Origin: Acaryochloris thomasi RCC1774
GTDB lineage: Bacteria > Cyanobacteriota > Cyanobacteriia > Thermosynechococcales > Thermosynechococcaceae
NCBI RefSeq assembly: GCF_003231495.1
Contig: NZ_PQWO01000027.1
Location: 1-32,000, forward strand
DNA length: 32,000 nt
Direction of reading: 5' to 3'
The position numbers were made by a program, and so were the translations under genes. Below, one piece after another: positions 10,178 through 25,197 of this stretch. The stretch's first letter is position 1. The number at the start of each line of letters is the position of its first letter. Under the pieces are notes generated by a model. That model was given only the letters and a program-made list of their open reading frames with translations. It was not told the DNA's origin and did not search any database.

Positions 10178-13100
10178 ATGAACGAAACTGCCCTGGGGCG
10201 ATTTTGGGAGCTGCTGGGCTGGGTGCTGGCATTCAATGTTGATGCTTTTAGACAGCTTGAAACGATGCCGAAAGGATCGATCATTGTGCTGATTGTGGTT
10301 CTTTCAGCAGGGCTTTCGCAGGCGATTGCACACAGCGTGATTCTGTTTGCCAACCGCGTCAAGCCAGTCCGCCTCTTTTTCAGCTTGCTCATCAGCGCCA
10401 TATTGTTTGTGTTCGGCTACCTGTTTCTCGTATGCAGCACCTGGCTAATTAGCTTTGCTCCATTCACCGTTAAAGCGACTTTCAGCGATCTGGCGCGCAC
10501 CTTGGGCTTTAGCTATGCGCCGCTTGTGTTTAGTGCGTTTGGGGCCATGCCCTATTTTGGTGAACCCATTCTGGCAGCCTTATCACTGTGGCAATTATTA
10601 GCAATGGTCGTAGGCTTCGCGGCGATTAGCGGTGCTAGCCTATGGCAGTCTTTCGGCACCGTAGCTTTGGGCTGGGTAACGCTTTGGGTGCTGCAGCGTA
10701 CACTAGGGCAACCGATTGTTCGCTTAGGTTATTGGATTGCTTCTAAAGCAGCAGGTGTCGAACTCATTACTGACACCCAAAAGCTCAAAGATTTCTTTCA
10801 AGAGTTTCAACTATTTTCAACAGCGAAACCCACGTCAGCAAAAGTGGTAAAGCTCAAACGAAAACCATCTTCTGACCGCTACAGCTTACGCAATATTATC
10901 AGCGTTTCGATTGGCCTTCTAGCTCTCGCTGTGAGTACCCTCACTGCAGCGATTCTCTTGTCTCCGATCCGGCATTGGTGGTTTGCTTGGCATAATAGCC
11001 TGACTAACATCTTTGGACTCGCGTTCGACTTAGGCTGGATTGCCGTGACTGCTGTTGTGACCACCGCACTCCTATCGCCTTTAGAAGCGCTGCGCTGGTG
11101 GGCAGGTTGGGGCGATGTGTCCGATGTCTCCGCCGATACGAAAGCGCTCTCAGGTGTTCTCTCAGAGACACAGTTCCTGACCTCTGCCCAGTCTGCCGAG
11201 ACTCATGCTGCCCAAACTCAAAGAACGGCTGCCCGCTATATCGTTTTTCTGGACGGCATCAACCAATCGGAGTTTGAACATACGCCCGATGTTGAAGACT
11301 TTTTCGATGCGCTGGAGTCTGTTTTGTCAGAGGATGTGGTTCTAATCAAGGGCATCATGTCCTATTCAGTGCGGAACCGTCCGCTCACCATAAATCGTCC
11401 CTTATCATTTGTTTGGCGCTGGATTAACGCGTTTAGAATCAACCATCCTTCAAGCCTGTTCAGTTACTTCGTCAATATTCGCAACGCCTGGATTGTCGCA
11501 GTTTCTGCCGACAAGCGTTATGGGCCAATCTACAATCGGGGAATCGCAAAAGTGGTTTGTCAGACCTTGCTACAGCGGGGCTACCGTCCCGATAGTGGCC
11601 TTCCCATTACCTTGATTGGCTTCAGCGGCGGTGGACAAATGGCGATCGCAACGGCTTCACTCCTGCAGGGTGTATTGAAAGCGCCCATTGACGTGATTTC
11701 GCTAGGCGGAGTGATGAGCGGCAACATCAATATTCTTGAACTCGAACACCTCTATCACCTATCGGGTGAGAAAGATGCAGTTGAGCGCATCGGGCCGGTC
11801 ATGTTTCCAAAACGCTGGGCTATCTATTCTCTGTCTTACTGGAATCGGGCGAAGCGATTAGGAAAAGTAAGTCTCATTTCACTTGGCCCCGTTGGACATC
11901 AGGTCCCTGGAGGCATTATGGACCCCGATCAGAAATTGCCGGATGGTCGCACCCATTTGCAGCAAACAGTTGATCTAGTGACGGCCATTTTGCTAGAAGA
12001 TTCTGAGAGTCAGCGTAAAGGCCACTCAATACCGGAGCCTAAGCTGAGCGACTATGAGCGATACCGGGCGATCGCAGCTAATCGAGCAGAATCTTATCCG
12101 ATTCACCAGTCACTGCCGTCGGAATATTACCGAGAGATCGCACCCTGGATGGGACGGTTAATCTTACCGGCTCCAGAACGGCGGCAGCCCCACGGCGTTC
12201 TGTTTGAAGTGCATCATGCGCCTGATCGGTTTCAGCATCTAGTCAGCAAAATCGTGACGCTACAGCTAGATGACGAACCCGAAACGCGCTCATATGTCCA
12301 CGCCGTGAACAAAGACATACACTTCAGCCCCCAAGCCGAAGCCAGCGTCAGGGACGGTAACATTCATCCGACTCGGCTTAACCACTGGCGCTTGGTTAAC
12401 CCTTTAGAATCGCTCGCAGGTGCTCATCCGGTCGACGATGTAACGGTGATGTTGCCACGGTCAGTGACAGTTCAGCAGCATGGTGCTGAGCGAGAAGGGA
12501 AAAGCGCCCTATCACCGATTCTCGTGATCCAGCGTGAGCCAGTACAAATCACCGGACGCTACTACGGGCTAGTGCAATTCATCGGGCCAGTCGCAAATCC
12601 ACCAGAGCCGGAAAATGATGGTTTCAGAGTGATTCATTTCAACCGAGCCACAGGGCAATTTGACGGTCTTAAAGAGACGGTAAAGGTTCCTCAGACCCCT
12701 GTGAACTACAACGATACGAAGCCTTCCACCCGTAGAGGTCTCGAGAATTCGCCTTTAAATGAATTAGGGTGGTACATCTATGGTGCGCAGGACGACTCAG
12801 GACTGTTTGTCGTTCAGGCAATAGCGCCGCGCAAGCTGCTACAGGCCAAACCGGATCGGGTCTTGACTGGCAAGAAAGCCGCTCGAGAGTACGTTAAGAA
12901 AAAGGCCTGGAGGCACATAGAAGATAACAAAGGAACCGCGCGTTCTGCTTTGCTAAAGCCAGCATTTTCAGTTCAGACCCAAGGAACAACCTGGGCTGAA
13001 GGCCAGCGGGCCTTATTGATTCATGTATACGGCGGTATCGGTGGCAACAAAACTGAACCTGCCGCCAAAACACCGCTTTATTTTGGGCATTTTGTCTACG

Positions 13101-13837
13101 GTACGGCTGAGGTCGTTCGCGAACCGTTAACTGGCGAGCTGAGATTTGAGATCGTTTATCACCAAATTTATACTCAAAATTCTGAGGGGTTAACTGCCGG
13201 TAGCCTGCACTGGTCTCGCTATATGGGCGATCGCGCCTTTGGCTTTTTGGGACTGCGCCCGGTGGCTGATACTTTAATCAAGCTAGACGAGTTTGTCAGC
13301 GACTATCGTGGCGAAGGATGGCAGCGATCGCCCTTAGATTGCGTGATGTATGAACTCGAAATTATGGCGGCTCGCTATCGGATTGGCGACGGCACTGGCG
13401 CGACCTTCGTCGGGCCAGCCAACAATTGCGCCCAAGATGCCAATCAAGCTTTATATGCTGCGCTGCGCTATATCTCTGAATCGATTCGTACCCATCCAAA
13501 TATCGAGCAGTGGAAGCAGCAGCAGCCCGACCAGGCTCGCAGGCTTGATCGGTTAGAGCAATTTACCGAAGACTTTAAGCAGATCCTGCTCCCGTGGGGA
13601 ACAGCCCGCGCCGACTGGGAAAAAAGCGCAAACGTATTGGGCAGCACGTTAGGAGATCATCCTGTCCAAAATCTAATTCGCGGCTTAGTTACCTGGCGAA
13701 CGCTGCTGCCGCGTTTGGCCAGCGATAAAGTAACCGAAGCCTTTCTAAAAAGGGGAGGAGAAGTGTGGATACTTCAAACCATTCAGGTTGGTGGCGTTAA
13801 TCCTGACATTGAACCCGTAGCTCCCATGACGCTGTAA
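10178..13837 (+). CDS. 1219-aa multidomain membrane protein: Yip1-like polytopic N-terminus, alpha/beta-hydrolase-like middle, unknown ~600-aa C-terminus
   Basis: Single uninterrupted ORF with an ATG start. About 5 hydrophobic helices in aa 30-190 and 2 more around aa 235-300. Nucleophile-elbow G-F-S-G-G lies at nt 11618-11632, preceded by YIVFLDGINQ. The C-terminal half has no motif I recognise. Confidence 0.75.
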   Translation: MNETALGRFWELLGWVLAFNVDAFRQLETMPKGSIIVLIVVLSAGLSQAIAHSVILFANRVKPVRLFFSLLISAILFVFGYLFLVCSTWLISFAPFTVKATFSDLARTLGFSYAPLVFSAFGAMPYFGEPILAALSLWQLLAMVVGFAAISGASLWQSFGTVALGWVTLWVLQRTLGQPIVRLGYWIASKAAGVELITDTQKLKDFFQEFQLFSTAKPTSAKVVKLKRKPSSDRYSLRNIISVSIGLLALAVSTLTAAILLSPIRHWWFAWHNSLTNIFGLAFDLGWIAVTAVVTTALLSPLEALRWWAGWGDVSDVSADTKALSGVLSETQFLTSAQSAETHAAQTQRTAARYIVFLDGINQSEFEHTPDVEDFFDALESVLSEDVVLIKGIMSYSVRNRPLTINRPLSFVWRWINAFRINHPSSLFSYFVNIRNAWIVAVSADKRYGPIYNRGIAKVVCQTLLQRGYRPDSGLPITLIGFSGGGQMAIATASLLQGVLKAPIDVISLGGVMSGNINILELEHLYHLSGEKDAVERIGPVMFPKRWAIYSLSYWNRAKRLGKVSLISLGPVGHQVPGGIMDPDQKLPDGRTHLQQTVDLVTAILLEDSESQRKGHSIPEPKLSDYERYRAIAANRAESYPIHQSLPSEYYREIAPWMGRLILPAPERRQPHGVLFEVHHAPDRFQHLVSKIVTLQLDDEPETRSYVHAVNKDIHFSPQAEASVRDGNIHPTRLNHWRLVNPLESLAGAHPVDDVTVMLPRSVTVQQHGAEREGKSALSPILVIQREPVQITGRYYGLVQFIGPVANPPEPENDGFRVIHFNRATGQFDGLKETVKVPQTPVNYNDTKPSTRRGLENSPLNELGWYIYGAQDDSGLFVVQAIAPRKLLQAKPDRVLTGKKAAREYVKKKAWRHIEDNKGTARSALLKPAFSVQTQGTTWAEGQRALLIHVYGGIGGNKTEPAAKTPLYFGHFVYGTAEVVREPLTGELRFEIVYHQIYTQNSEGLTAGSLHWSRYMGDRAFGFLGLRPVADTLIKLDEFVSDYRGEGWQRSPLDCVMYELEIMAARYRIGDGTGATFVGPANNCAQDANQALYAALRYISESIRTHPNIEQWKQQQPDQARRLDRLEQFTEDFKQILLPWGTARADWEKSANVLGSTLGDHPVQNLIRGLVTWRTLLPRLASDKVTEAFLKRGGEVWILQTIQVGGVNPDIEPVAPMTL

Positions 13838-14955: not shown

Positions 14956-15792
14956 GGGTTCTGTTGCGTTAACGTTCCAGGGCGCAAGAATGGGAGCCTA
15001 ACCCTGATTTTTAGACAGCAATCCCAAAGATCTCTGAAATGAAGTGATTCTGAGAAAGAAGACATTCTTTCTCAATACCGACAATCTGACCCTTGCGAAT
15101 CGCATTCATCGTCTCATATCCCCGAATCGTTAGCTTGGCACTCCAGAAGTTTTGAAATTCAAGCCCTGCCTTCACTTTGAGTTTTATAAATCTGTGATCT
15201 TGTTCCAATATATTATGGAGGTACTTCACGGGCAGATGTTCCGTTTCTTCGGGTAACTCACCTGACTCCTGAAGATCCTCAATTACACCTGGATAGACGG
15301 CGTATTTATCCGTATTGATGACTCTGGGCATCTGCTCTACATGTTCTCTCTGCAAGACCTTACTCAGAAACCGTTTGGCAGCTTTTGTGTCTCGCTTAGC
15401 TGTCAGCAAGAAGTCGAGCATGAAGCCCGACGAGTCGATGGCTCTCCAGAGATAATAGAACTGCTCTTGAATATCGATGTATGTCTCATCGATTCTCCAT
15501 GAGTCGTTGGTTGGCCGGAAGTGTGGACGGCAGCGCTCATCGAGTTCAGGTCCATATCGCTGAACCCACTGATAGATAGTGGTATGGTCTACTTCAACGC
15601 CACGCTCAGCTAGCATTTCAGCAACATCCCGACAACTCAGTCGATAGCAAAGATACCAGCGCACTGCCCACAGAATAATGCAGGGTGGGTACTGACGATG
15701 TTTGAACGGGCGGTCAACAAGCATAACTGAAAGCTAGCAGTGGCAAAGATCTCGACCTACCATCTCCAGATCCAATCCCTGCAGCAGAACCC
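14956..15792. mobile_element. IS6-family insertion sequence (837 bp)
   Basis: Terminal IRs GGGTTCTGTTGC (14956-14967) and the reverse complement of 15781-15792 (GGGTTCTGCTGC), similar to the IS26 end GGCACTGTTGC. One transposase ORF fills the element. The flanking 8-mers differ (ACTACTAA vs TGAGATTT). Confidence 0.85.
15011..15724 (-). CDS. IS6-family DDE transposase
   Basis: Collinear with IS26 Tnp as I recall it: IILWAVRWY..Y.LS.RD..EMLAERGV.VDHTTIY.WVQRY.PE, RIDETYI, YLWRAIDS.G...DF.L...R...AAKRFL, INTDK, and H....KYL.N..EQDHR.IK. Confidence 0.92.
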   Translation of the reverse strand: MLVDRPFKHRQYPPCIILWAVRWYLCYRLSCRDVAEMLAERGVEVDHTTIYQWVQRYGPELDERCRPHFRPTNDSWRIDETYIDIQEQFYYLWRAIDSSGFMLDFLLTAKRDTKAAKRFLSKVLQREHVEQMPRVINTDKYAVYPGVIEDLQESGELPEETEHLPVKYLHNILEQDHRFIKLKVKAGLEFQNFWSAKLTIRGYETMNAIRKGQIVGIEKECLLSQNHFISEIFGIAV

Positions 15793-16753: not shown

Positions 16754-17818
16754 TCAAAATGGCAGCAACAACTGCATTCCCTTTGGCTTTCTGGCGGTAT
16801 CGGGTATCGGCTCCGGCACTTCTGCTGTTACAGAGCAATAGCGCTGATAACTACAGCGATCGCACTGTTCTCCTTTCTTCGGTCGCCATTCATCCTCTTT
16901 CTGTAGACTAACCGCTAGTTTTTCGATGAGTCGCTTTGACTCTTTTCGGTGCTCTGGAGTGACTTCATAGGTGACTTTCTCACCCGTCCGTAGGTAGATG
17001 AGACTGAGCTTGTGGAGAGCCTGCTGATAAGCCTGTTTGAGAAGTAAATCGTAGAGGCCCAACTGAATATCTACAGCATCCGGTGGGCTAACCAATTTTG
17101 TGGTCTTATAACCTACATTCCGCAGGTTAGTGAATTCTTGTAAGCCTTTTCCAGTAAAGGCTTTGAGCTTTATCCCGAAATTCAAGAATACCTCCCTCAG
17201 AGCGTTGAGATACAGGTGGCCGATTAACCTGTATTGCTTTTCCAATCTGGCTTCTAGAGAGTCTGTGATCTGTTTTTTCAGGTGATGCAACCTGGATTGA
17301 TGGAACAGAGCCGATTCTTGATAGGCCCTGTAACCCTTCTCTAGTATGGCTCCTAGAAAAGTGTACTACCTGCGGAATGTAGGTTATAATCAATCAGCTC
17401 TAATCCATCATCGACATAATCCAGACGATCGTATTGGCCCCGAATGACAAACTCGTAGTAGCCAACTCGAAAAGACCCCTTGATTGACTGCTCTACTCCA
17501 AGGGGTTTTCTCATCATCGGCATTGGCTCTACGTATCTCTCGTAGTACTCCTGCAGCATCCGCCAGCCGTCGTTTACTTGATTTGCCCAGGTCAACAGTG
17601 TGCGATTGCCAACACTGTGAGAACCACTCTAGGTTGGGGATGGGGTATGCATAGTTCCACTGCTCGTAGATATCTTTGAGTGCTGCGTGAACAGCTTTAC
17701 CCAGTGCAGGAGAACCAAAGACAGACTGTTCCTTCAATCCTCGTTCATAGCGGAAGTAGTAGGACTGGGGGCAGCTTTTGTATAGCTTTAGCCGAGTTGC
17801 TGAGATGGGGTAAGCCAT
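16754..17818 (-). pseudogene. PD-(D/E)XK (Cas4/RecB-like, Fe-S cluster) nuclease gene, disrupted by a frameshift and a MITE
   Basis: Three ORF pieces. The N-terminus has LYKSCPQSYYF (first Cys). The middle has GQYDRLDYVDDGLELIDY. The C-terminus has CDRCSYQRYC. The frame changes near 17590. The 17112-17383 insertion splits ELIDY|KTTK. Confidence 0.75.
17112..17383. mobile_element. 272-bp MITE with 15-bp perfect TIRs and a palindromic TTATAA target duplication
   Basis: CCTACATTCCGCAGG (17112-17126) and CCTGCGGAATGTAGG (17369-17383) are perfect reverse complements. They are flanked by TTATAA at 17106-17111 and 17384-17389. Removing the element plus one TTATAA joins the two ORF pieces in frame. 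Confidence 0.75.
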
Positions 17819-17844: not shown

Positions 17845-18828
17845 CTAAGCACTAGATTCTGATTCAAGAATTAGTGATTCTAGTTGGTTTGTTAGCGATT
17901 CTACTTTCCTTCTTATTCTCTTGTCCTTCAGCAATTTTGGGCTAGTTGCCTTCTTGAGAATAGATCGTGCACGATCGCGCAGCACTACACTGTTATTGTT
18001 GGCGTTGTTTTTTGTGGAGGTGATGATTAGATTCTGAATCTCTTTGACCGTAAGCTTTTCATCAACTGCACTTTTGAGCAGAGCCTTACGTTCTGCCTCA
18101 TTTTTAACTCTGGCGATACGGATCGCTTTGGTGTACGACAGCTTTCCTGCCTCCAGAAAAGCAATTACATCATTTGGTAGGTTGATAAGCTGAAGCTTGT
18201 TTGCTACGAATGACTTCCAGTTCAATCCCAACTCCTCAAATACTGAGATGATGAATTCTCTCTGCTTGGCAGTGATAATAACGTTATTGTCACCACCTCG
18301 ATTCTCTGCATTAAATAATGAAGTGAGGGCATGAGCGACTTCATCGGTGTCCTTGTCTAAACCGACGGACAGTAACTGAATAATTCCGCGAGTACGTTCG
18401 AAAGGATTGATGTCTGAACGGGCTTCATTTTCGATAATTGCTATCTTTAGGGCTGTAAAGTCATCTACTTCATCAACTTTTACAGGGACAGTAGTAAGCC
18501 CTAGTTCTGCTGCCGCTAATCGTCTTTGCGAGCCAGCAATCAACTCAAAATGGTCTGAGGCTTCACTTGTTGGTCTTAAAAGCAGTGGTTCTTTTATCCC
18601 TACTGCTTGAATTGTTGCCTTAATTTGTTCAATTTTGATGCGGTCATAGTAGAGCCTGAGTTGGAAATCAGGTAGAAGAATTTTCTCTAATTCTATTTCA
18701 AGAGTAGGGGACTGGCTCCATGCCGGTAGCCCGTCACGATTTAGAAAGCCATCGTTGAGGACAAAATTTTCTAAGGCTTCCTCCGTATGTTTTTCTCTTT
18801 GCAACGTTAACGAACGACGCTTAGCCAT
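17845..18828 (-). CDS. parB: ParB/Spo0J-like partition protein
   Basis: ParB N-terminal box IKEPLLLRP...FELIAGSQRRLAAAELGL..VPV, plus an HTH-like middle region. I prefer the ATG at 18828 (ATGGCTAA, an 8-nt overlap with the parA stop) over the track start at 18885, which would overlap parA by 65 nt. Confidence 0.85.
   Translation of the reverse strand: MAKRRSLTLQREKHTEEALENFVLNDGFLNRDGLPAWSQSPTLEIELEKILLPDFQLRLYYDRIKIEQIKATIQAVGIKEPLLLRPTSEASDHFELIAGSQRRLAAAELGLTTVPVKVDEVDDFTALKIAIIENEARSDINPFERTRGIIQLLSVGLDKDTDEVAHALTSLFNAENRGGDNNVIITAKQREFIISVFEELGLNWKSFVANKLQLINLPNDVIAFLEAGKLSYTKAIRIARVKNEAERKALLKSAVDEKLTVKEIQNLIITSTKNNANNNSVVLRDRARSILKKATSPKLLKDKRIRRKVESLTNQLESLILESESSA
18272..18293. promoter_or_regulatory. 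second copy of the candidate parS motif, inside the parB coding sequence
   Basis: GTGATAATAACGTTATTGTCAC is 20/22 palindromic with a perfect 12-bp core AATAACGTTATT. It shares an exact 15-mer with the site at 19636-19650. Confidence 0.45.
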
Positions 18829-19591
18829 TGATGATCTCCGTAATCTCTTCAAAAAGCTGACAGTACTCATTACGAGCGATTTCAATCGACGTGAGTTTTT
18901 TGACTTTCTTCACGCCTCTTTTCTTACGGCTTTTCTCTAAACGTTGGGATTCTCTCAGTGCAGTAGTTCTTTGCCCCGGAACGTCCATGATGCACGTCCG
19001 ATGATAGATGACTGTATCAAGTGGAAACACATGCTGTCTTACCTTATTGTCTTCATCTGTTGCTTCAAGGGCTTCGCGTAGGAGGATAGTGCCCTCTTGC
19101 GCCCGATTGAAAAACATGACTGCTTTTGGCAATCCACCCCGGATGTCTTGAGCAACTTCAACCATCTCGATAGTGTCATCATTGCTATCCAAGTCAAGCT
19201 GGGAAGTTTGGCAGGGGATAACTACGATATCGCATCGGCTCAAGATGGCTCTTGAGACTTCCTCCATGCTGCCTGGAGCATCAACGATCACGTAATCGTA
19301 CTGCTGTTTGACATTCGGAAGTTCTCTAAGAAGTGTTCTTGCATCACCCATAACAGAGCACTGAATGTCTGCGCTAATAGCAGAGAGCCATCTCGAACTG
19401 CTTCTCTGGGCATCTGCATCTACAAATCCTACGGAACCAAACTGTTCAAACCAGTCCCTAGCATGTGCAGCTGTTGTTGTCTTTCCTACACCTCCCTTCT
19501 GACTGAGAAAGGCAATGACGATCTTTTTGGTAGGTGGAGTAAACTTCTTTCGTCTGGGAGCACGAGGCTTCTCTCGTGTGGCAGTAGCCAT
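18821..19591 (-). CDS. parA: ParA-family partition ATPase
   Basis: Deviant Walker A (SQKGGVGKTT), Walker A' (FVDAD) and Walker B (YVIVDAPG). Followed by parB. Confidence 0.9.
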   Translation of the reverse strand: MATATREKPRAPRRKKFTPPTKKIVIAFLSQKGGVGKTTTAAHARDWFEQFGSVGFVDADAQRSSSRWLSAISADIQCSVMGDARTLLRELPNVKQQYDYVIVDAPGSMEEVSRAILSRCDIVVIPCQTSQLDLDSNDDTIEMVEVAQDIRGGLPKAVMFFNRAQEGTILLREALEATDEDNKVRQHVFPLDTVIYHRTCIMDVPGQRTTALRESQRLEKSRKKRGVKKVKKLTSIEIARNEYCQLFEEITEIING

Positions 19592-19676: not shown

Positions 19677-19877
19677 CTAAATGAAGCAATTTATCTTGTT
19701 GTTACTTGATCCCATCGGTCTACTGCAGGTTCTGTAGTACTTCTCATTCCACCTCGCCGAACACTCATCCAACTCCGAGATCGCCTCAATCTGCCAGAGT
19801 ATGTCAGCGAAGGTCATAGGGATCTTGCTCTTGTCGCTATCGGAAAGGGTGAGCACATAATCCTTACGAATACTCAA
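19677..19877 (-). CDS. small protein paralogous to an internal module of the upstream recombinase
   Basis: 66-aa ORF whose ATG overlaps the recombinase stop by 14 nt. DYVLTLSDSDKSKIPMTFADILWQIEAISELDECSARW aligns with recombinase aa 509-548, EYLLTLTYHEKDEISQIIGDMFWRMEMIAELDNCKVNCEW, with about 15 identities. Confidence 0.5.
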   Translation of the reverse strand: MSIRKDYVLTLSDSDKSKIPMTFADILWQIEAISELDECSARWNEKYYRTCSRPMGSSNNKINCFI

Positions 19878-22074
19878 GCTCCCTTAGGGCTTGATTCACC
19901 TCTTGTAGGTCAAAGGCTTTCGGGTCAAACTCGCTCCCAACCCATTCTTTCCGTTCCCTGTGATCACTATGTCGGGGATTTTTCAGCACCTTCAACAAAT
20001 GGGCATACCCCCAGTCCCCGCCACAGTCTTCCGGTGGACAAGCCTGCTTTCCGGCCAGACACACTGGATAGGTTTTCTCAGGCTCACTTGCTAGCCTTTT
20101 TTCTACCTCGATTTCGTGCTGCCACATATCACCAAGGTTGTATAGGTAGGAGAATGAAAACAACTCATTCCCAATTAACTCCGCTAAGGTAAGAGTCTCA
20201 TCCTCCTCGTCCTCATTGACCGAGAACTTGTGAAGATGGTAGCCCTCCCACCCCATCGCAGCTTGTACCACTGGATGAAGTTGGGCCAGCGTCATGACCT
20301 CTGACACTTGAAGCCGCCGCCAGACCTTAGGCTGGACTCCCAAAAGCGTAATTTTCAATTGATAGACGCTGGTTACATGGACTGCATCTAAAGAATCTTC
20401 TACAGCCGTAATTTTTGGACAGTCTAGCGGTTCCTCAGTAGAGGCCAGCTCCAGTACTTGATCCACCATCTCCCACTCACAATTCACTTTGCAATTATCC
20501 AGCTCTGCGATCATCTCCATCCGCCAGAACATATCACCAATAATTTGCGATATTTCATCCTTCTCGTGATAGGTCAGAGTTAGCAAGTACTCATTACCCC
20601 GAGGTTTCGTCTTCTGGCCTTGAACATCGCTGAACACCTGCCGCTCAATCTCCTTGCGGACCTTCGATTTTTTACGGCCTTCGACCCAGAGCTTGAAGCG
20701 CACCTGGGCCTGATGCTCAACGGCGGTGTCCCCATACCTTAAAGGCATCTGTAGCTTAAGCCCAGACTCCAGATCAACTAGTGCAGTCTCAGGAGAATTA
20801 ACCTCTTCCCTCTCCTGAGACTGTATATCTGGCGATTGTCCTTCTTCAGCAACCTTCACACCAAACATTTCCGGCATACCGTAGGCCAGCTCAAGCATTT
20901 GCTCCAGCGCCTCAATGTTCTCCTGCCAAAGCTCTGCGAAAGTAATGTCCCCATCATCAAACTCCACTTGGCCCAACGGTTCCTTTCCTGTCAACTGCAC
21001 CAATCCCCCCAGCAGCTTCCGCTGCTTCCTATCTAAAGACTTTGCATACACCAACTCCTTAGACTCTTCAATGGAGCGGTAATACGCCTCCACCGCAGCT
21101 TCCTGCTCCGCCCCCATCGTGTAGCGCCGAAACGATCTCTCGTCCGTGTGCCCCGTCAACCGCATCGCATGGGCCGGGTCCATGCCCTTCCGCAGCATCT
21201 CAGAAGCCCCCGTGTGCCGCAGCCGGTGGGGATGAATATCAGGAACCCCCGAGATCTCCCCAATCGCCTCCACCATCTGATAGACCCCCTGGTAGGACAA
21301 TCGCTGGCCGCCCCACCCGCGATGCTGAGAGAGAAACAGAGGAAAGTCAGGCTGCAGCTCCTCTCCCTGGTCTCGCCGCCAGTCTAAATACTCCGCTACC
21401 GCCTTCTGGCCCGCAGGGCTGAGGGGCACCAAGCGAGGCTGTTTATTCTTCGATATCGGAATCGAGATCAGACGCCCATCAAACGATCCGACATTGGTGG
21501 CCACCACCTCTCCGGATCGCATCCCACTGGCCAGCAAGTGCAGCAATGCCAGATCTCTCACTTGAGTACGCCCCCGCTGGACCACCGCCGCCCACACCTT
21601 CTCCATATTCTCAGCCGAGATATCCTGTGGCATCGGCACCGGCAACCGCTCGAATTTGACCCCCTCAGTCGGGTTCTCCGGGCACAGCTCAGGATGAAAC
21701 GTATTCAACCACCGAAAGAACGACTTGAGGGCCGTCAAAGCCGCATTGACGCTGCTCTTCGAGAGCGTTTTCCCCGGCTTAACCTCATGCTCCATCAAAT
21801 AGGCTTTGTACTGCCCCAACTGCCGGAGCTTCAGCTCAGACCAAGCAGAGTGGGTCCAGCCCAAAAAACGCTTCAATTCACGCTCATAGAGCTTCCGAGA
21901 GTTGGCTGCTAGATTGCTCGCTCTCAGAAACTCCTGCACCACCGGCCAGCGGATATCAGCAGGGGTCTCAATTTGCCGGGGCCGTCCCTGCCGTTGCCTC
22001 GATTCGGGCCTCTCCTCCGCCACCGGGATGGCCACCACCATTACTGGGGGAATTGACTTCGGAGCGATCGCCAT
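19864..22074 (-). CDS. tyrosine recombinase/integrase fused to a C-terminal PRiA4_ORF3 (plasmid pRiA4b ORF-3-like) domain
   Basis: SAM-like N-domain (track aa 60-140). Catalytic R200 (GMRSGE), H297xxR300 (HPHRLRHTGAS), H323 (LTGH) and Y332 (FRRY). The C-terminus has YQLKITLLGVQPKVWRRLQV...LAQLH.VVQAAMGWEGYHLHKF and PVCLAGKQACPPEDCGGDWGY...FDP.AFDL, the PRiA4_ORF3 hallmarks. The track start at 22116 is TTG. I prefer the ATG at 22074, which has GAGG 8 nt upstream. Confidence 0.9.
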   Translation of the reverse strand: MAIAPKSIPPVMVVAIPVAEERPESRQRQGRPRQIETPADIRWPVVQEFLRASNLAANSRKLYERELKRFLGWTHSAWSELKLRQLGQYKAYLMEHEVKPGKTLSKSSVNAALTALKSFFRWLNTFHPELCPENPTEGVKFERLPVPMPQDISAENMEKVWAAVVQRGRTQVRDLALLHLLASGMRSGEVVATNVGSFDGRLISIPISKNKQPRLVPLSPAGQKAVAEYLDWRRDQGEELQPDFPLFLSQHRGWGGQRLSYQGVYQMVEAIGEISGVPDIHPHRLRHTGASEMLRKGMDPAHAMRLTGHTDERSFRRYTMGAEQEAAVEAYYRSIEESKELVYAKSLDRKQRKLLGGLVQLTGKEPLGQVEFDDGDITFAELWQENIEALEQMLELAYGMPEMFGVKVAEEGQSPDIQSQEREEVNSPETALVDLESGLKLQMPLRYGDTAVEHQAQVRFKLWVEGRKKSKVRKEIERQVFSDVQGQKTKPRGNEYLLTLTYHEKDEISQIIGDMFWRMEMIAELDNCKVNCEWEMVDQVLELASTEEPLDCPKITAVEDSLDAVHVTSVYQLKITLLGVQPKVWRRLQVSEVMTLAQLHPVVQAAMGWEGYHLHKFSVNEDEEDETLTLAELIGNELFSFSYLYNLGDMWQHEIEVEKRLASEPEKTYPVCLAGKQACPPEDCGGDWGYAHLLKVLKNPRHSDHRERKEWVGSEFDPKAFDLQEVNQALRELEYS

Positions 22075-22217
22075 CTCGTTACCTCGCGGACCTTCTATAA
22101 TAGTGGCATATTTCAATAATAAATATTGGGCTAATATCTTAGCTATGACTAAACTATGACGAATAAGAGATGGTAAGATGATCTGAGAATCTAAAATCTA
22201 AGCAGCGAGAGGATTCG

Positions 22218-22433
22218 ATGCCCAAGAAGATTCGAGAGATCAAGGCTATGCTCAAGGAGGCTGGCTTCATTGTCCGGTCGGGAAAAGGGTCACACAATAA
22301 CTGGAAGCATCCCCGGTTGCCCCAGGTGATCACGGTGGCTCGTAAGGATGGAGCCGATGCCCCCCGCTATCTGGAACGAAAGGTTTCTCAAGCCCTGCAG
22401 CAGTTGAAGGAGTTACCCGATGACGCAGACTAA
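22218..22433 (+). CDS. hicA: HicA-family type II toxin (mRNA interferase)
   Basis: K.REI.A.L.EAGF...SGKGSHNNWKHP pattern, 71 aa, GAGG RBS. Overlaps the downstream hicB by 14 nt. Confidence 0.85.
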   Translation: MPKKIREIKAMLKEAGFIVRSGKGSHNNWKHPRLPQVITVARKDGADAPRYLERKVSQALQQLKELPDDAD

Positions 22434-22641
22434 GTATCGAATGATCATTGAATGGTCAGATGAGGATTCTTGCTTTGTGGTGTCTCTGCCGGACTTTGAG
22501 CGGGTGACGCAGCCGGTGACGGATGGCACCACCTATGAAGCGGCAGCTCGGCAAGGGCAAGAAGCGATTGAGTCCTTAGTGGATTTCTATGAAGCTGAGG
22601 GGTGGACTTTGCCCGTCCCGCAGACGTTGCAGGTGGCCTAG
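22420..22641 (+). CDS. hicB: HicB-family antitoxin (short form, no obvious DNA-binding extension)
   Basis: YRMIIEWSDEDSCFVVSLPDF....TDGTTYEAA...QEAIE......EAEGWTLPVP is the HicB/UPF0150 fold signature. Gene order is hicA then hicB. Confidence 0.85.
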   Translation: MTQTKYRMIIEWSDEDSCFVVSLPDFERVTQPVTDGTTYEAAARQGQEAIESLVDFYEAEGWTLPVPQTLQVA

Positions 22642-22645
22642 GACA

Positions 22646-23128
22646 ATGGCTCGGCCCCTGGCAGAGAAATGTCGGCGGTGTGCCAAGCTGTCGGTGACTG
22701 AAGCGAAGGAGAAGGACTGCTGGGCAGGGCAAGTCTGTCATGTTCGTCGTCATGGGTACCGGAATCGCGATCGCTACAACAAGCAGAAGAAAAAGCAGTA
22801 TGCCATTGCAACCGGCAAGATCATTCCAGAGATCACGGTGGCTGTACCTGCGACTCCGGCTGCGATTCTGCATCTGTATCGAGTGAGGGTGGATGCACCC
22901 CTCCATGCGATCGCCGCTGAACTGTGGATCGGGCAACAGCAGGTTGCGAAAGTTGAACCTGTGCATTGCCTGGGGTGGACAGGAATGCAAGTGAAACAGT
23001 ATTCGCGGGAGGTACTGAAAGGCTTTTCAGGTCAGCTTGAGGATGTTGTGCTGGACCGCTTTGAAACAACGGTGGAGTTGAATCCAAACCAGTGCCCGAT
23101 CCGTCCATGTCCTCTCCACCCTGAGTAA
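22646..23128 (+). CDS. hypothetical protein with an N-terminal Cys4 zinc-ribbon-like motif and a basic tract
   Basis: The ATG at 22646 lies 5 nt after the hicB stop; the track's 22589 start would overlap hicB. CRRC-x12-C-x5-CH is followed by RRHGYRNRDRYNKQKKKQ. The C-terminus has CPIRPCP. No family recognised. Confidence 0.6.
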   Translation: MARPLAEKCRRCAKLSVTEAKEKDCWAGQVCHVRRHGYRNRDRYNKQKKKQYAIATGKIIPEITVAVPATPAAILHLYRVRVDAPLHAIAAELWIGQQQVAKVEPVHCLGWTGMQVKQYSREVLKGFSGQLEDVVLDRFETTVELNPNQCPIRPCPLHPE

Positions 23129-23133
23129 TATTA

Positions 23134-23775
23134 ATGAGTGTTATTCAGCTAGAACTCGATCTTTGGCAGCAGCTTGCCGTAGCTGAGGAATACCCTGAGC
23201 AGACTAACGTTGAGCAGTTGTGCTTAGGGTTAGATCTGATGCTGACTCAGGTGTCTCCTAAGCGGCAGTTAGAGATGGCTGGGGAAGCCTTTCTACAGAT
23301 TGCTGAAGTCTTCAATCGTCGAGCGGATATGCTGCTCAATGATTGGAAGCAGGCTCACAGTGAGGAGGGGCCGGTGCTGGACTTGGGAGAGCTAGAGGTG
23401 CTGGTCCGTCAGTCGATGGTGTTTGATCTCGATGAATTGTTCGCTGAGCCTGAGCTTGTCACTAGGCGCACTTTCCCAAAAGAGGAAGGGGACTCTGTGG
23501 TTGCGATCGTGGAGAAAGAGGTGTTGCTTCAGGAGCTGGAGTTGCAGCAGCCGGAAGAGGTATTTGCTGTGATTGAGGAGGAAAACGTGGCGGCTTGGGT
23601 GGATGCGATCGCACAACGATTGCGGGCCAGGGGAGGTAGTGACTCTGCGATCGCACTGCAGCAGCACCTAGAGTTGTCTTGGGGACGGTTATGGCTGGGA
23701 CTGCTGCTTGGTGGGTTCGAGTTGGAGAGCGATCGCTTTTACAGTCGGGAAATTGAAGTGAGCTGTGTACGTTGA
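23134..23775 (+). CDS. hypothetical acidic protein with a conserved C-terminal SWGRLWLGLLLGGFELE module
   Basis: ATG 5 nt after the previous stop. 213 aa, very E/D/L-rich. The C-terminal 57 aa are paralogous to ORF 24154-24339. Any resemblance of this tail to kleisin (ScpA-type) winged-helix C-termini is pattern-level only. Confidence 0.6.
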   Translation: MSVIQLELDLWQQLAVAEEYPEQTNVEQLCLGLDLMLTQVSPKRQLEMAGEAFLQIAEVFNRRADMLLNDWKQAHSEEGPVLDLGELEVLVRQSMVFDLDELFAEPELVTRRTFPKEEGDSVVAIVEKEVLLQELELQQPEEVFAVIEEENVAAWVDAIAQRLRARGGSDSAIALQQHLELSWGRLWLGLLLGGFELESDRFYSREIEVSCVR

Positions 23776-24152
23776 CAAATCTCAAAAAAATCGAAGCATT
23801 GCTCAATCCTCTGGATACATCATCTACCGAGTGCGATGGTATGACTCGCTTATGCCATACTGTTCTCTCCAGAGAGTCGATAGAACACAGTGTTTACATC
23901 GGTTCATGTCGGGTAGAAAGCCAGGAAATTCCGCTTCACTTCTGGATAGAGCTGCTGGGGGAACACAAGGGGTACATCGTTGATTATCGTTTAGGGATGT
24001 GGATGCGCGATGTTGTGATTCAGGTTCCTCACGGGATATTCAAGGCCGACACATTCCGTCACGTCAGTTACCAGGGTGAGGCAATCGACATTCCCTATTT
24101 GCCAGAGCCACTCTTTCAGATTTTGTCGATGAGCGCTCCGCTTATCCAGTGA
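23772..24152 (+). CDS. hypothetical protein with transglutaminase/papain-like Cys-His-Asp spacing
   Basis: The TTG start overlaps the previous stop (GTTGA). C21 is followed by a helix (ECDGMTRLCHTVLSRESIEHSVYIG), then H56 in LHFWIEL and D71 in GYIVDY. This mimics C...GIPAR.V.G...HaWvE...GW..fD of transglutaminase-like cysteine peptidases. Confidence 0.5.
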   Translation: MTNLKKIEALLNPLDTSSTECDGMTRLCHTVLSRESIEHSVYIGSCRVESQEIPLHFWIELLGEHKGYIVDYRLGMWMRDVVIQVPHGIFKADTFRHVSYQGEAIDIPYLPEPLFQILSMSAPLIQ

Positions 24153-24153
24153 T

Positions 24154-24339
24154 GTGGGAGGAGATGCGATCGCACAAAGGCTAGCAGCCACCGAGAATGG
24201 TAGTGACTCTCTCGTCGCATTGCAGAAGCACCTAAAGCTATCCTGGGGGCGGCTGTGGTTGGGGCTATTGCTAGGGGGCTTTGTGTTGGAGTCGGATGGT
24301 GAGCACTTTTATGGTGGTGGGATCACTATCCGTTTCTGA
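24154..24339 (+). CDS. 61-aa protein paralogous to the C-terminus of the 213-aa protein (GTG start)
   Basis: Starts 1 nt after the previous stop. About 65% aa identity to aa 157-213 of ORF 23134-23775. The 15-aa core LSWGRLWLGLLLGGF is identical although 12 of its 15 codons differ synonymously. Confidence 0.55.
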   Translation: MGGDAIAQRLAATENGSDSLVALQKHLKLSWGRLWLGLLLGGFVLESDGEHFYGGGITIRF

Positions 24340-24886
24340 ATATCGCTGAAGTTGAGAGGGAAAGTTCAATACAACCAGACGCAGTAGGAGATGATCGCGT
24401 GTAGGAATCGATTGTCGTTTGTTGGCAATGCTCATCACCTAAACCTGGCATAGGCATGGTTAGGGTGCCATACCGAATTCCTTGAACAGTTCGGCACTGT
24501 ATCAGATGCATTGCTTAGATGATCGCTTCAGCCACCCTGGCCAACATTGCAGATCAACAAAACTGGAAACCCGTAATCAGTTGAGGGTTCTCATCTTTCT
24601 AAATACCTGCCCGCCTTTCTCATACTTTACAAGGCCACGATTTAGCATCTATATTTCAGCCTAAAGCATACTAAGCAGGCAACACAGGTAGGGCAAATCA
24701 CCACGAAATGACTTCAGCTTAATAAATATATCACTAAGAAATGTAACAGAAAGTTGCCTTAGTTAAGAATTTATGCAGATCCCTGATCCCGGTGCTAGCT
24801 TAGATGCTGATACCTAGTCAAAATCAATGTTCGCATCAAGGAGGCACCTACCTATGCTCTACATCTATCTAGTCTGAGGCTATCTC

Positions 24887-24910
24887 ATTCAAGTATGGCC
24901 ATACTTGAAT
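24887..24910. repeat. 24-bp perfect palindrome in a long non-coding stretch
   Basis: ATTCAAGTATGGCCATACTTGAAT, flanked by GTCTGAGG (24872-24879) and GTCTGAGC (24912-24919). Confidence 0.3.
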
Positions 24911-25197
24911 GGTCTGAGCAGTCTTTCTGGTTTAGCCCTTCTTCACTTTTGTTGGGAGTTTTCCTCAAGCTCATCTCAAGTCAATTGCCCATTGTCTCTT
25001 AGCCGTAACGTCCCATGCGTAATCCTGGGCGTATATGTACTAAAGACGATCTGAGTCCAAGATTTTTTTAATTTAAGTTTTTTAATCCTGATAGACCTGT
25101 TGTTTTCCGTCTGATGGGAGTGTGTGCTGTTGCCTATGTTGATTCTATGGCAGGGATGACAGCTTGATAATCCATTGGACTTTGTGGGAGGAGAAGC

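Follow-up and report, generated by a model that had tools for sequence, protein, structure and literature searches.

A conserved ORF1-ORF2 gene pair beside recombinase and partition genes on cyanobacterial plasmids

For this analysis we used a 32,000-nt stretch of the Acaryochloris thomasi RCC1774 genome (contig NZ_PQWO01000027.1, positions 1 to 32,000, forward strand), called the window in the following. It contains four closely packed open reading frames (ORFs) on the + strand between positions 22646 and 24339, directly behind the toxin-antitoxin genes hicAB. The analysis indicated that the functional unit is the pair of the first two genes, ORF1 (22646..23128, 160 aa, basic and Cys/His-rich) and ORF2 (23134..23775, 213 aa, acidic). 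Together they form a core operon within the maintenance backbone of a cyanobacterial plasmid family that is widespread. Neither ORF1 nor ORF2 belongs to any described family. In an initial annotation, made from the sequence alone, all four ORFs had been regarded as one functional system in a plasmid maintenance or defence context. The maintenance context was borne out, as the module sits in the plasmid maintenance backbone. The conserved unit, however, comprises only ORF1 and ORF2, which are syntenic, and ORF3 joins them in just 3 loci. All coordinates are window positions; loci of relatives are labelled L### and protein representatives P####.

The four ORFs of 160, 213, 126 and 61 aa were found exactly where the initial annotation had placed them. 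The A. thomasi RCC1774 entries C1752_08965, C1752_08966 and C1752_08967 (51.8-kb contig) match ORF1, ORF2 and ORF3, respectively, with 100% identity. ORF1-3 are real genes, because homologous clusters exist for all three, namely 63 for ORF1, 105 for ORF2 (at 90% identity) and 18 for ORF3. All named clusters of ORF1 and ORF2 are cyanobacterial. The described tight junctions were found for ORF1/ORF2 (5 nt), ORF2/ORF3 (4-nt overlap) and ORF3/ORF4 (1 nt), but hicB and ORF1 are separated by 4 nt and not by 5 nt. From hicA to ORF4, the scan for internal promoters and terminators gave no convincing candidate. The lone weak terminator-like hairpin on the + strand (23406-23419) lies within ORF2, and terminator-like sites were not commoner than in shuffled sequence. 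As far as such predicted signals go, the absence of an internal promoter agrees with the single transcript suggested in the initial annotation. No RNA family of Rfam reached the threshold anywhere in the window.

For the survey of gene neighbourhoods, an ORF1 profile scan was carried out with one genome per species, which resulted in 78 loci. ORFs were called in these loci and searched with profiles and single queries. ORF2 counts refer to the 68 loci with room for this gene, integrase and slot counts to 52 loci, and ParA and ParB counts to 37 loci with enough flanking sequence. ORF2 follows directly after ORF1 in 66 of the 68 loci. In P0281 both are joined in a single protein of 466 aa, in which an ORF1 part with a duplicated C-terminal domain is linked to a complete ORF2. 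This fusion is good evidence that both proteins work as a complex. The co-occurrence that had been proposed for all four ORFs thus holds for ORF1 and ORF2, which work together as judged from adjacency and fusion, but not for ORF3, whose homologues are scattered singly.

The full profile search with ORF2 gave 786 representative clusters at 50% identity, and only close family members were present among the top 150 matches listed. With tblastn, ORF1 was detected at 93 places on 79 plasmids, all of them cyanobacterial; it therefore occurs nearly always once per plasmid. These plasmids include pREB1-7 of A. marina, pCC7120alpha and pNPUN01/02, and the hosts of pair-bearing plasmids belong to Acaryochloris, Nostoc, Leptolyngbya, Pseudanabaena and others. 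One contig binned as "Chitinophagaceae bacterium" (L051) is colinear with a Leptolyngbya contig of the same study (L050). This is probably a binning error, and the family therefore remains restricted to cyanobacteria. For the A. thomasi paralogues P0004, P0005 and P0020, no record was found on look-up.

The pair is linked to genes for recombination and partition. An integrase homologue is located less than 2.5 kb upstream, always in divergent orientation, in 38 of the 52 loci; the recombinase is thus a travelling partner, as had been considered in the initial annotation. ParA or ParB is encoded less than 6 kb from ORF1 in 18/37 loci. Many Leptolyngbyaceae, Oculatellaceae and Scytonema show the canonical order ParB<-ParA<-Int<- ->X->ORF1->ORF2. 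On the Nostoc plasmids pCC7120alpha and pNPUN02, Int, ORF1 and ORF2 are co-directional and form one tight operon with 3-nt and overlapping junctions. The proteins of the pair on pCC7120alpha have the accessions WP_010999637 and WP_010999638. Unsupervised clustering of all neighbours within 8 kb identified Int, DUF4058, ParA and ParB as the only conserved partners. In the literature library searched, no paper was found on the ORF1-ORF2 pair, its accession numbers or DUF4058. The pair is among the few genes common to plasmids of diverse cyanobacteria. An understanding of its role would fill a gap in replicon biology, and vectors for the engineering of cyanobacteria could be made more stable with it.

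A. marina MBIC11017 has copies of the int-to-ORF2 module on pREB1, pREB3, pREB4, pREB6 and the chromosome. The ORF1-ORF2 parts of these copies are 94-98% identical and the integrases about 91%. The flanks are unrelated, and homology stops at the gene ends. The chromosomal copy (L013, NC_009925, 6.20-6.22 Mb) has the order int-hicAB-ORF1-ORF2 with an interrupted integrase, and its ORF1-ORF2 part is 98% identical to that of pREB3. On the 44-kb plasmid of Leptolyngbya BL0902 (L089, 19917-23489) the pair lies between transposase genes without an adjoining integrase. This plasmid also encodes a type I-D system of clustered regularly interspaced short palindromic repeats (CRISPR-Cas).

ORF1 has an isoelectric point (pI) of 9.35, which increases to 10.2 for the first 60 residues. 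Residues C9, C12, C25, C31, H32, H87, H107, C150 and C155 are conserved. The AlphaFold2 model has a mean confidence (pLDDT) of 90.5 and shows N-terminal helices carrying C9, C12, C25, C31 and H32, a long arginine-rich helix and a beta-beta-beta-alpha-beta domain, which holds the conserved H87, H107, C150 and C155. This is in line with the earlier description of ORF1 as a basic protein that resembles a Cys4 zinc ribbon, and the protein looks like a zinc-binding nucleic-acid binder. A Foldseek search of the model against PDB and BFVD gave no fold match at E<0.001 and nothing below E=0.01 either; the weak matches have an RNase H-like topology in common.

ORF2 is very acidic (pI 4.27, 42 Asp+Glu residues) and scaffold-like, as had been noted before. 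Its AlphaFold2 model reaches a pLDDT of 79.9 overall and above 90 in both domains. A helical bundle (residues 6-75) is followed by a region of low confidence (95-150), which represents a disordered acidic linker, and by a winged helix (152-210). The linker contains the conserved short motifs GP and VRQSM. In the winged helix, the third helix is hydrophobic (WLGLLLGG) and therefore suggests a contact with another protein rather than the reading of DNA. The ORF2 profile gave only chance matches against PDB. Searches of ORF1-4 against Pfam, NCBIfam, PADLOC and PHROGs yielded no significant match, in agreement with the earlier statement that none of the ORFs can be matched to a characterised family.

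The divergent operons are separated by a short control region with two elements. A 17-bp direct-repeat element, TATGAC-TAAAC-TATGAC, is conserved at 22144..22160 (+ strand) and is taken as the promoter or operator of the operon. One exact copy is present in the window, compared to 0.10 expected. In about 45 loci its consensus T[AT][CT]GAC-TAAAC-T[AT][CT]GAC is found as a single + strand copy, located 60-100 bp upstream of the leading gene of the operon, irrespective of whether this is hicA, DUF4058 or ORF1. Directly beside the direct repeats, on their upstream side, lies a candidate imperfect inverted repeat (22118..22140, AATAAATAT / TGGGC / TAATATCTT). In 31 unique canonical sequences, the left arm GTAAAATAT and the right arm CAATATCT are conserved, and the five bases between them are hypervariable. 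At L068, which represents a third clade, a perfect 10-6-10 inverted repeat occupies the equivalent position. The arms at 22118-22140 look like the core site of a tyrosine recombinase and are possibly one; a similar appearance would be expected for an operator or for back-to-back promoter boxes, among them the promoter of the integrase. At L025 (600-4300), two ORF1 modules face each other in a head-to-head arrangement, and both strands carry the direct-repeat element (- strand, 2064-2080; + strand, 2110-2126). The modules thus form an inverted duplication with the control region at its centre.

Between the promoter and ORF1 there is a variable slot. In the window it is occupied by the toxin gene hicA (22218..22433, + strand; PF07927, E=3e-11, 43.7 bits compared to a cut-off of 27 bits) and the antitoxin gene hicB (22420..22641, + strand; PF15919, HicB_lk, 22.1 bits, which is below the cut-off of 27 bits). 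The homologous A. marina pair is annotated as HicA/HicB in RefSeq. An equivalent position of hicAB was found on A. marina pREB1, pREB3 and the chromosome and at L015, and hicAB fills the slot in Acaryochloris and one other lineage. Over the 52 loci, the slot contains DUF4058 in 32 and HicB in 4, and it is empty in some. The initial annotation had also considered hicAB as a travelling partner, which did not hold in view of these counts. The apparent gap of 940 bp between integrase and ORF1 in the canonical loci is in fact a gene, because the alignment shows variation at third codon positions; it encodes DUF4058 (E=1e-96). The stop codon of this gene and the start of ORF1 overlap, which indicates translational coupling. 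We take DUF4058 to be a PD-(D/E)XK-like family. The DUF4058 gene is the first gene of the operon at L024 (9189-10001) and at 37 other loci. Because the direct-repeat element precedes whatever gene comes first, hicAB is regarded as a passenger inside an older operon. On these grounds it is assigned as an addiction cassette in the variable slot and not as a fixed partner of ORF1. It resembles type II HicAB systems in the 14-nt overlap of hicA and hicB and in the matched Pfam families, with HicB below threshold. It differs in standing outside the conserved pair, as the slot holds DUF4058 or nothing on other plasmids.

The reading that we favour, as a tentative one that may well prove wrong, is that ORF1 and ORF2 form an accessory or regulatory DNA-binding/adaptor complex of the tyrosine recombinase, with a role in multimer resolution and in control of both divergent operons. 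ORF1 would bind DNA via its zinc-binding, arginine-rich N-terminal region. ORF2 would be the acidic adaptor, whose linker and domains could hold ORF1, possibly in two copies, and whose winged helix with the hydrophobic third helix would contact another protein. The complex would act at the short control region shared by the ORF1 operon and the divergent tyrosine recombinase-parA-parB genes, in which the conserved direct repeats and the flanking imperfect inverted repeat are located. As a partner of the recombinase it would help to resolve plasmid multimers and set the expression of both operons. The biology of the large plasmids of cyanobacteria, including multimer resolution and the control of maintenance genes, is little understood. 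Their replication proteins were found only recently (PMC10899382).

The proposed arrangement can be compared to three known systems, of which two carry a serine resolvase. In Tn3 the res site is located between tnpA and tnpR, and in RK2/RP4 the multimer-resolution operon parCBA is divergent from the toxin-antitoxin pair parDE with the site in between. In both RK2 and Tn3, a short control region holds the recombination site together with the promoters. Similarly, a recombinase operon and a second operon diverge here from a short control region, and as in RK2/RP4 the second operon includes a toxin-antitoxin pair, or else a nuclease-like gene, together with small proteins. In contrast to RK2 and Tn3, the enzyme is a tyrosine recombinase and the recombination site is only a candidate. 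ORF1 and ORF2 also show no similarity to ParB, ParC, ParD or ParE of RK2. The third system is Xer recombination at the plasmid sites cer and psi. There, the core site is flanked by accessory sequences, to which PepA, ArgR or ArcA bind as accessory proteins, and the bound architectural proteins limit recombination to multimer resolution. Likewise, the enzyme here is a tyrosine recombinase, and two direct repeats immediately adjoin the candidate core. The difference from cer and psi is that the proposed accessory proteins would be plasmid-encoded and of no assigned fold.

Several observations weigh against a recombinase partner. All profile and fold searches were negative and gave no homology that ties ORF1 or ORF2 to recombination or regulation. 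The pair occurs without a nearby integrase in 14/52 loci and is therefore not strictly dependent on it. To our knowledge, plasmid-encoded tyrosine resolvases such as Cre and ResD need no accessory proteins from the plasmid. The arms of the inverted repeat are imperfect and rich in AT, and the sequence which they overlap may be nothing more than -10 boxes of promoters. A generic scan for inverted repeats did not separate loci with and without integrase, a comparison that was underpowered with only four loci lacking the integrase. Furthermore, the Nostoc loci do not contain the direct-repeat element.

Among the other explanations, the least improbable is a role in replication, with ORF1-ORF2 as a new two-protein initiator similar to lambda O/P, in which a DNA binder and an acidic adaptor recruit host replication proteins to an origin in or beside the operon. 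We regard it as unlikely, although the pair occurs once per plasmid on the 79 plasmids and lies beside parAB, where basic replicons are usually found. Within 8 kb there is no further conserved gene that would be suitable as Rep, no recognisable Rep was found in the window or on the 44-kb Leptolyngbya plasmid, and pCC7120alpha and the A. marina plasmids have no MOB-suite replicon type. However, the near-identical copies of A. marina reside together on four plasmids and the chromosome, which is unexpected for an incompatibility determinant; a trans-compatible maintenance or recombination module therefore fits better than an initiator that sets incompatibility. No iterons and no multi-copy direct or tandem repeats were found in the window or at L024, L042 and L007, and no Rep family of Pfam or NCBIfam was matched. 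ORF2 has a single winged helix, in which the hydrophobic third helix is unlike a DNA-reading helix. The GC skew of the 44-kb Leptolyngbya plasmid was uninformative, with a flat plateau dominated by the CRISPR array. Moreover, every pair-bearing plasmid that was checked has homologues of CyRepA (PMC10899382, Suppl. Data 1), a family with shown replication activity (Ohdate et al., 2024, PMC10899382). CyRepA and CyRepX resemble ORF1 and ORF2 as cyanobacteria-specific backbone proteins without Pfam domains that occur on the same plasmids. However, the CyRep proteins are of large size, are related to helicases and have been shown to support autonomous replication (PMC10899382), whereas ORF1 and ORF2 are small, unrelated and coexist with CyRepA on the same replicons. 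Less probable in our view is that ORF2 is a cryptic, highly diverged kleisin-like adaptor with ORF1 as its zinc-binding partner, which docks the plasmid onto an SMC complex of the host or blocks one such as Wadjet/MksBEF. If true, this would be a function of a plasmid backbone that has not been described before. The idea arises from the AlphaFold2 model, which has the layout and size of a kleisin (N-terminal helical domain, flexible acidic linker, C-terminal winged helix), and from the Foldseek search against PDB, where ranks 1-4 are kleisins, namely RAD21 (6wge_C), the C-terminal domain of ScpA (5h66_C, 5xg3_C) and Scc1 (6qpq_B), with a further one at rank 22 (1w1w_E). UniRef lists P0047, which belongs to the ORF2 family, as "Segregation/condensation protein A", and the two ORF1 C-terminal domains per ORF2 in P0281 recall the two kite subunits per kleisin. 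The E-values of the kleisin matches are only 0.07-0.42, however, and winged helices of the MarR and Z-alpha type score alike. A Pfam scan of each of 67 ORF2 members gave no match at all, including SMC_ScpA (PF02616, 0/67). With ScpA alignments of 3 and 10 sequences, rebuilt from PDB and plasmid records, hhalign yielded probabilities of 0.3% and 0.2%. The neighbour clustering within 8 kb linked no SMC ATPase or kite-type gene, and ORF1 is not a winged-helix protein in its AlphaFold2 model. Thus, ORF2 is like ScpA and the kleisins (PF02616) in size, in the three-part layout and in a winged helix with hydrophobic third helix followed by a beta-hairpin, but it differs in lacking sequence or profile similarity and a linked SMC or kite partner. 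Because the profile-profile comparison was negative and no SMC gene is linked, kleisin membership of ORF2 is not supported despite the similar layout.

We give slightly less credit to the idea that basic ORF1 and acidic ORF2 are an addiction pair of the toxin-antitoxin type. The opposite charges, the translational coupling, the apparently autoregulated promoter, the neighbourhood of another toxin-antitoxin pair and the movement of the module between replicons in A. marina would all be in line with it. Sizes and folds, on the other hand, are unlike those of known toxin-antitoxin families, no Pfam or PADLOC family matches, and a natural fusion such as P0281 would be odd for a toxin and its antitoxin. 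The synteny with int/parAB is also stable across cyanobacterial orders, with one copy per plasmid. The least credible explanation is the one given by the initial annotation, in which the four ORFs, with or without hicAB, constitute one cargo or defence system in which a cysteine peptidase is combined with a scaffold and a protein that binds nucleic acids. The tight coupling of the genes without a predicted internal terminator, the repeated adjacency of ORF2 and ORF3 at L003 and L010 and the invariant Cys-His-Asp pattern of ORF3 speak for such a system. But ORF3 follows ORF2 in 3 loci only, and it stands outside any four-gene system because about 2,050 plasmids carry a homologue of it on its own; the 61-aa ORF4, moreover, is a fragment. 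No PHROGs family was matched, and PADLOC-DB gave 0 families for ORF1-4 at E<=1, so that no model of a defence system applies. One copy per plasmid beside int-parAB is the behaviour of a backbone and not of a defence island. The four-gene defence or peptidase system is thus largely refuted by the synteny survey carried out here, and on the reading favoured here ORF1-ORF2 is not a defence or peptidase system.

ORF3 (23772..24152, + strand, 126 aa) has a TTG start, which lies within the GTTGA stop context of ORF2, and an invariant ECDGMT...H...D pattern. As judged from the distribution of its homologues, it represents an independent, separately mobile plasmid gene family that has been appended to the operon and lies outside its core. 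It follows ORF2 directly only in the window, at L003 and at L010. On A. marina pREB2 and pREB5 the homologues are located 20-30 kb from ORF1, on pREB5 among small genes and nucleases. Most of the roughly 2,050 plasmids with ORF3 homologues come from Enterobacteriaceae (Klebsiella, Salmonella, E. coli, Citrobacter). On IncC plasmids, where the homologue is WP_000849071, it corresponds to the C-terminal portion of a gene that lies at a distance of 4 kb from repA. The family was seen on IncC-type plasmids (L087, 3972-4580, pP10159-5) and on unrelated metagenomic plasmid-like contigs (L004-L006). It is part of a conserved block of small hypothetical genes, a PD-(D/E)XK gene, an S49 peptidase and DsbA. 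ORF3 is unstudied although it is found on more than 1,000 Klebsiella plasmids.

An alignment of 20 ORF3 sequences, from cyanobacteria to IncC plasmids, showed that E20-C21-D22-G23-M24-T25, H56, D71, R73, W77 and P86/G88 are invariant and H87 nearly so. Cys21, His56 and Asp71 are spaced by 35 and 15 residues within the motifs ECDGMT...HFWIE...DYR, so the Cys-His-Asp spacing pointed out in the initial annotation is a conserved feature of the family. The deposited gene model (C1752_08967, 103 aa) begins at Met24 and loses the invariant E20-C21-D22-G23 including the cysteine. The TTG codon further upstream is the better start, as supported by the homologues. In the Pfam scan, 2/20 members matched Transglut_core3 (PF13471) weakly, with E=0.04 and below the curated threshold. 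The ORF3 profile gave only chance matches against PDB sequences. We regard ORF3 as a putative transglutaminase-like Cys-His-Asp enzyme. It shares the invariant residues and their canonical spacing with transglutaminase-like (papain-fold) cysteine peptidases, but with 126 aa it is much smaller and stays below every curated threshold. With the corrected gene model, ORF3 stands for a very widespread unstudied family, which is also present on the clinically important IncC plasmids.

ORF4 (24154..24339, + strand, 61 aa) starts with GTG and was correctly recognised before as a repeat of the ORF2 tail. It shows 76% nucleotide identity to 23602-23760, starting at the shared GATGCGATCGCACAA, and 69.6% amino-acid identity to the tail of ORF2. 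Only the last helix and the wing of the ORF2-type winged helix are covered. Similar relics of ORF2 tails follow ORF3 at L003. ORF4 is thus a diverged relic that derives from an ORF2-type gene, of which it retains the 3' end, and it probably has no function. According to the simplest account, recombination at the 3' end of ORF2 brought in a segment with a replacement ORF2 tail and ORF3, and the old tail was left behind as ORF4. The proposed combination of binder, scaffold, cysteine peptidase and 61-aa ORF thus falls apart at both ORF3, which is scattered alone, and ORF4.

The neighbours named in the initial annotation were all found, that is, an integrase with fused PRiA4_ORF3, ParA, ParB, a split PD-(D/E)XK gene and hicAB. 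The tyrosine recombinase gene (19864..22116, - strand) is divergent from the ORF1 operon and encodes a Phage_integrase domain (PF00589, E=1.5e-22) and a C-terminal PRiA4_ORF3 domain (PF07929, E=4e-58). As judged from the ORF translation, translation probably begins at the ATG near 22074. The PRiA4_ORF3 domain follows after a linker of about 200 aa, and this fusion is present in 0/44 other loci with a homologous integrase. Immediately downstream lie parA (18821..19591, - strand), which encodes a partition ATPase (Pfam AAA_31, MipZ, CbiA), and parB (17845..18885, - strand; ParB_N, E=4e-14; HTH_ParB, E=6e-11). The order of Phage_integrase-domain recombinase, ParA and ParB is repeated in more than 15 loci, and ParB occupies the equivalent relative position in 18 related loci. 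The gene for a PD-(D/E)XK/Cas4-like nuclease (16754-17818, - strand) is split; one of its two ORFs covers 17408-17818 and the other 16754-17290. An IS240-type transposase is encoded at 15011-15724.

Further away, an ORF of 1219 aa without Pfam domain is located at 10178-13837 (+ strand). A comparison of this ORF with replication proteins of the CyRepA/X type was negative. It is rare: relatives were found in full length only in a 1.2-Mb record of Kovacikia minuta, whereas a Stanieria plasmid has just the C-terminal half. Megaplasmids of Sinorhizobium and Microvirga contain the part of residues 354-615. On the other side of the operon, a non-coding stretch of 860 bp between ORF4 and a short-chain dehydrogenase gene contains a perfect 13+13 palindrome at 24886-24911 (CATTCAAGTATGG|CCATACTTGAATG).

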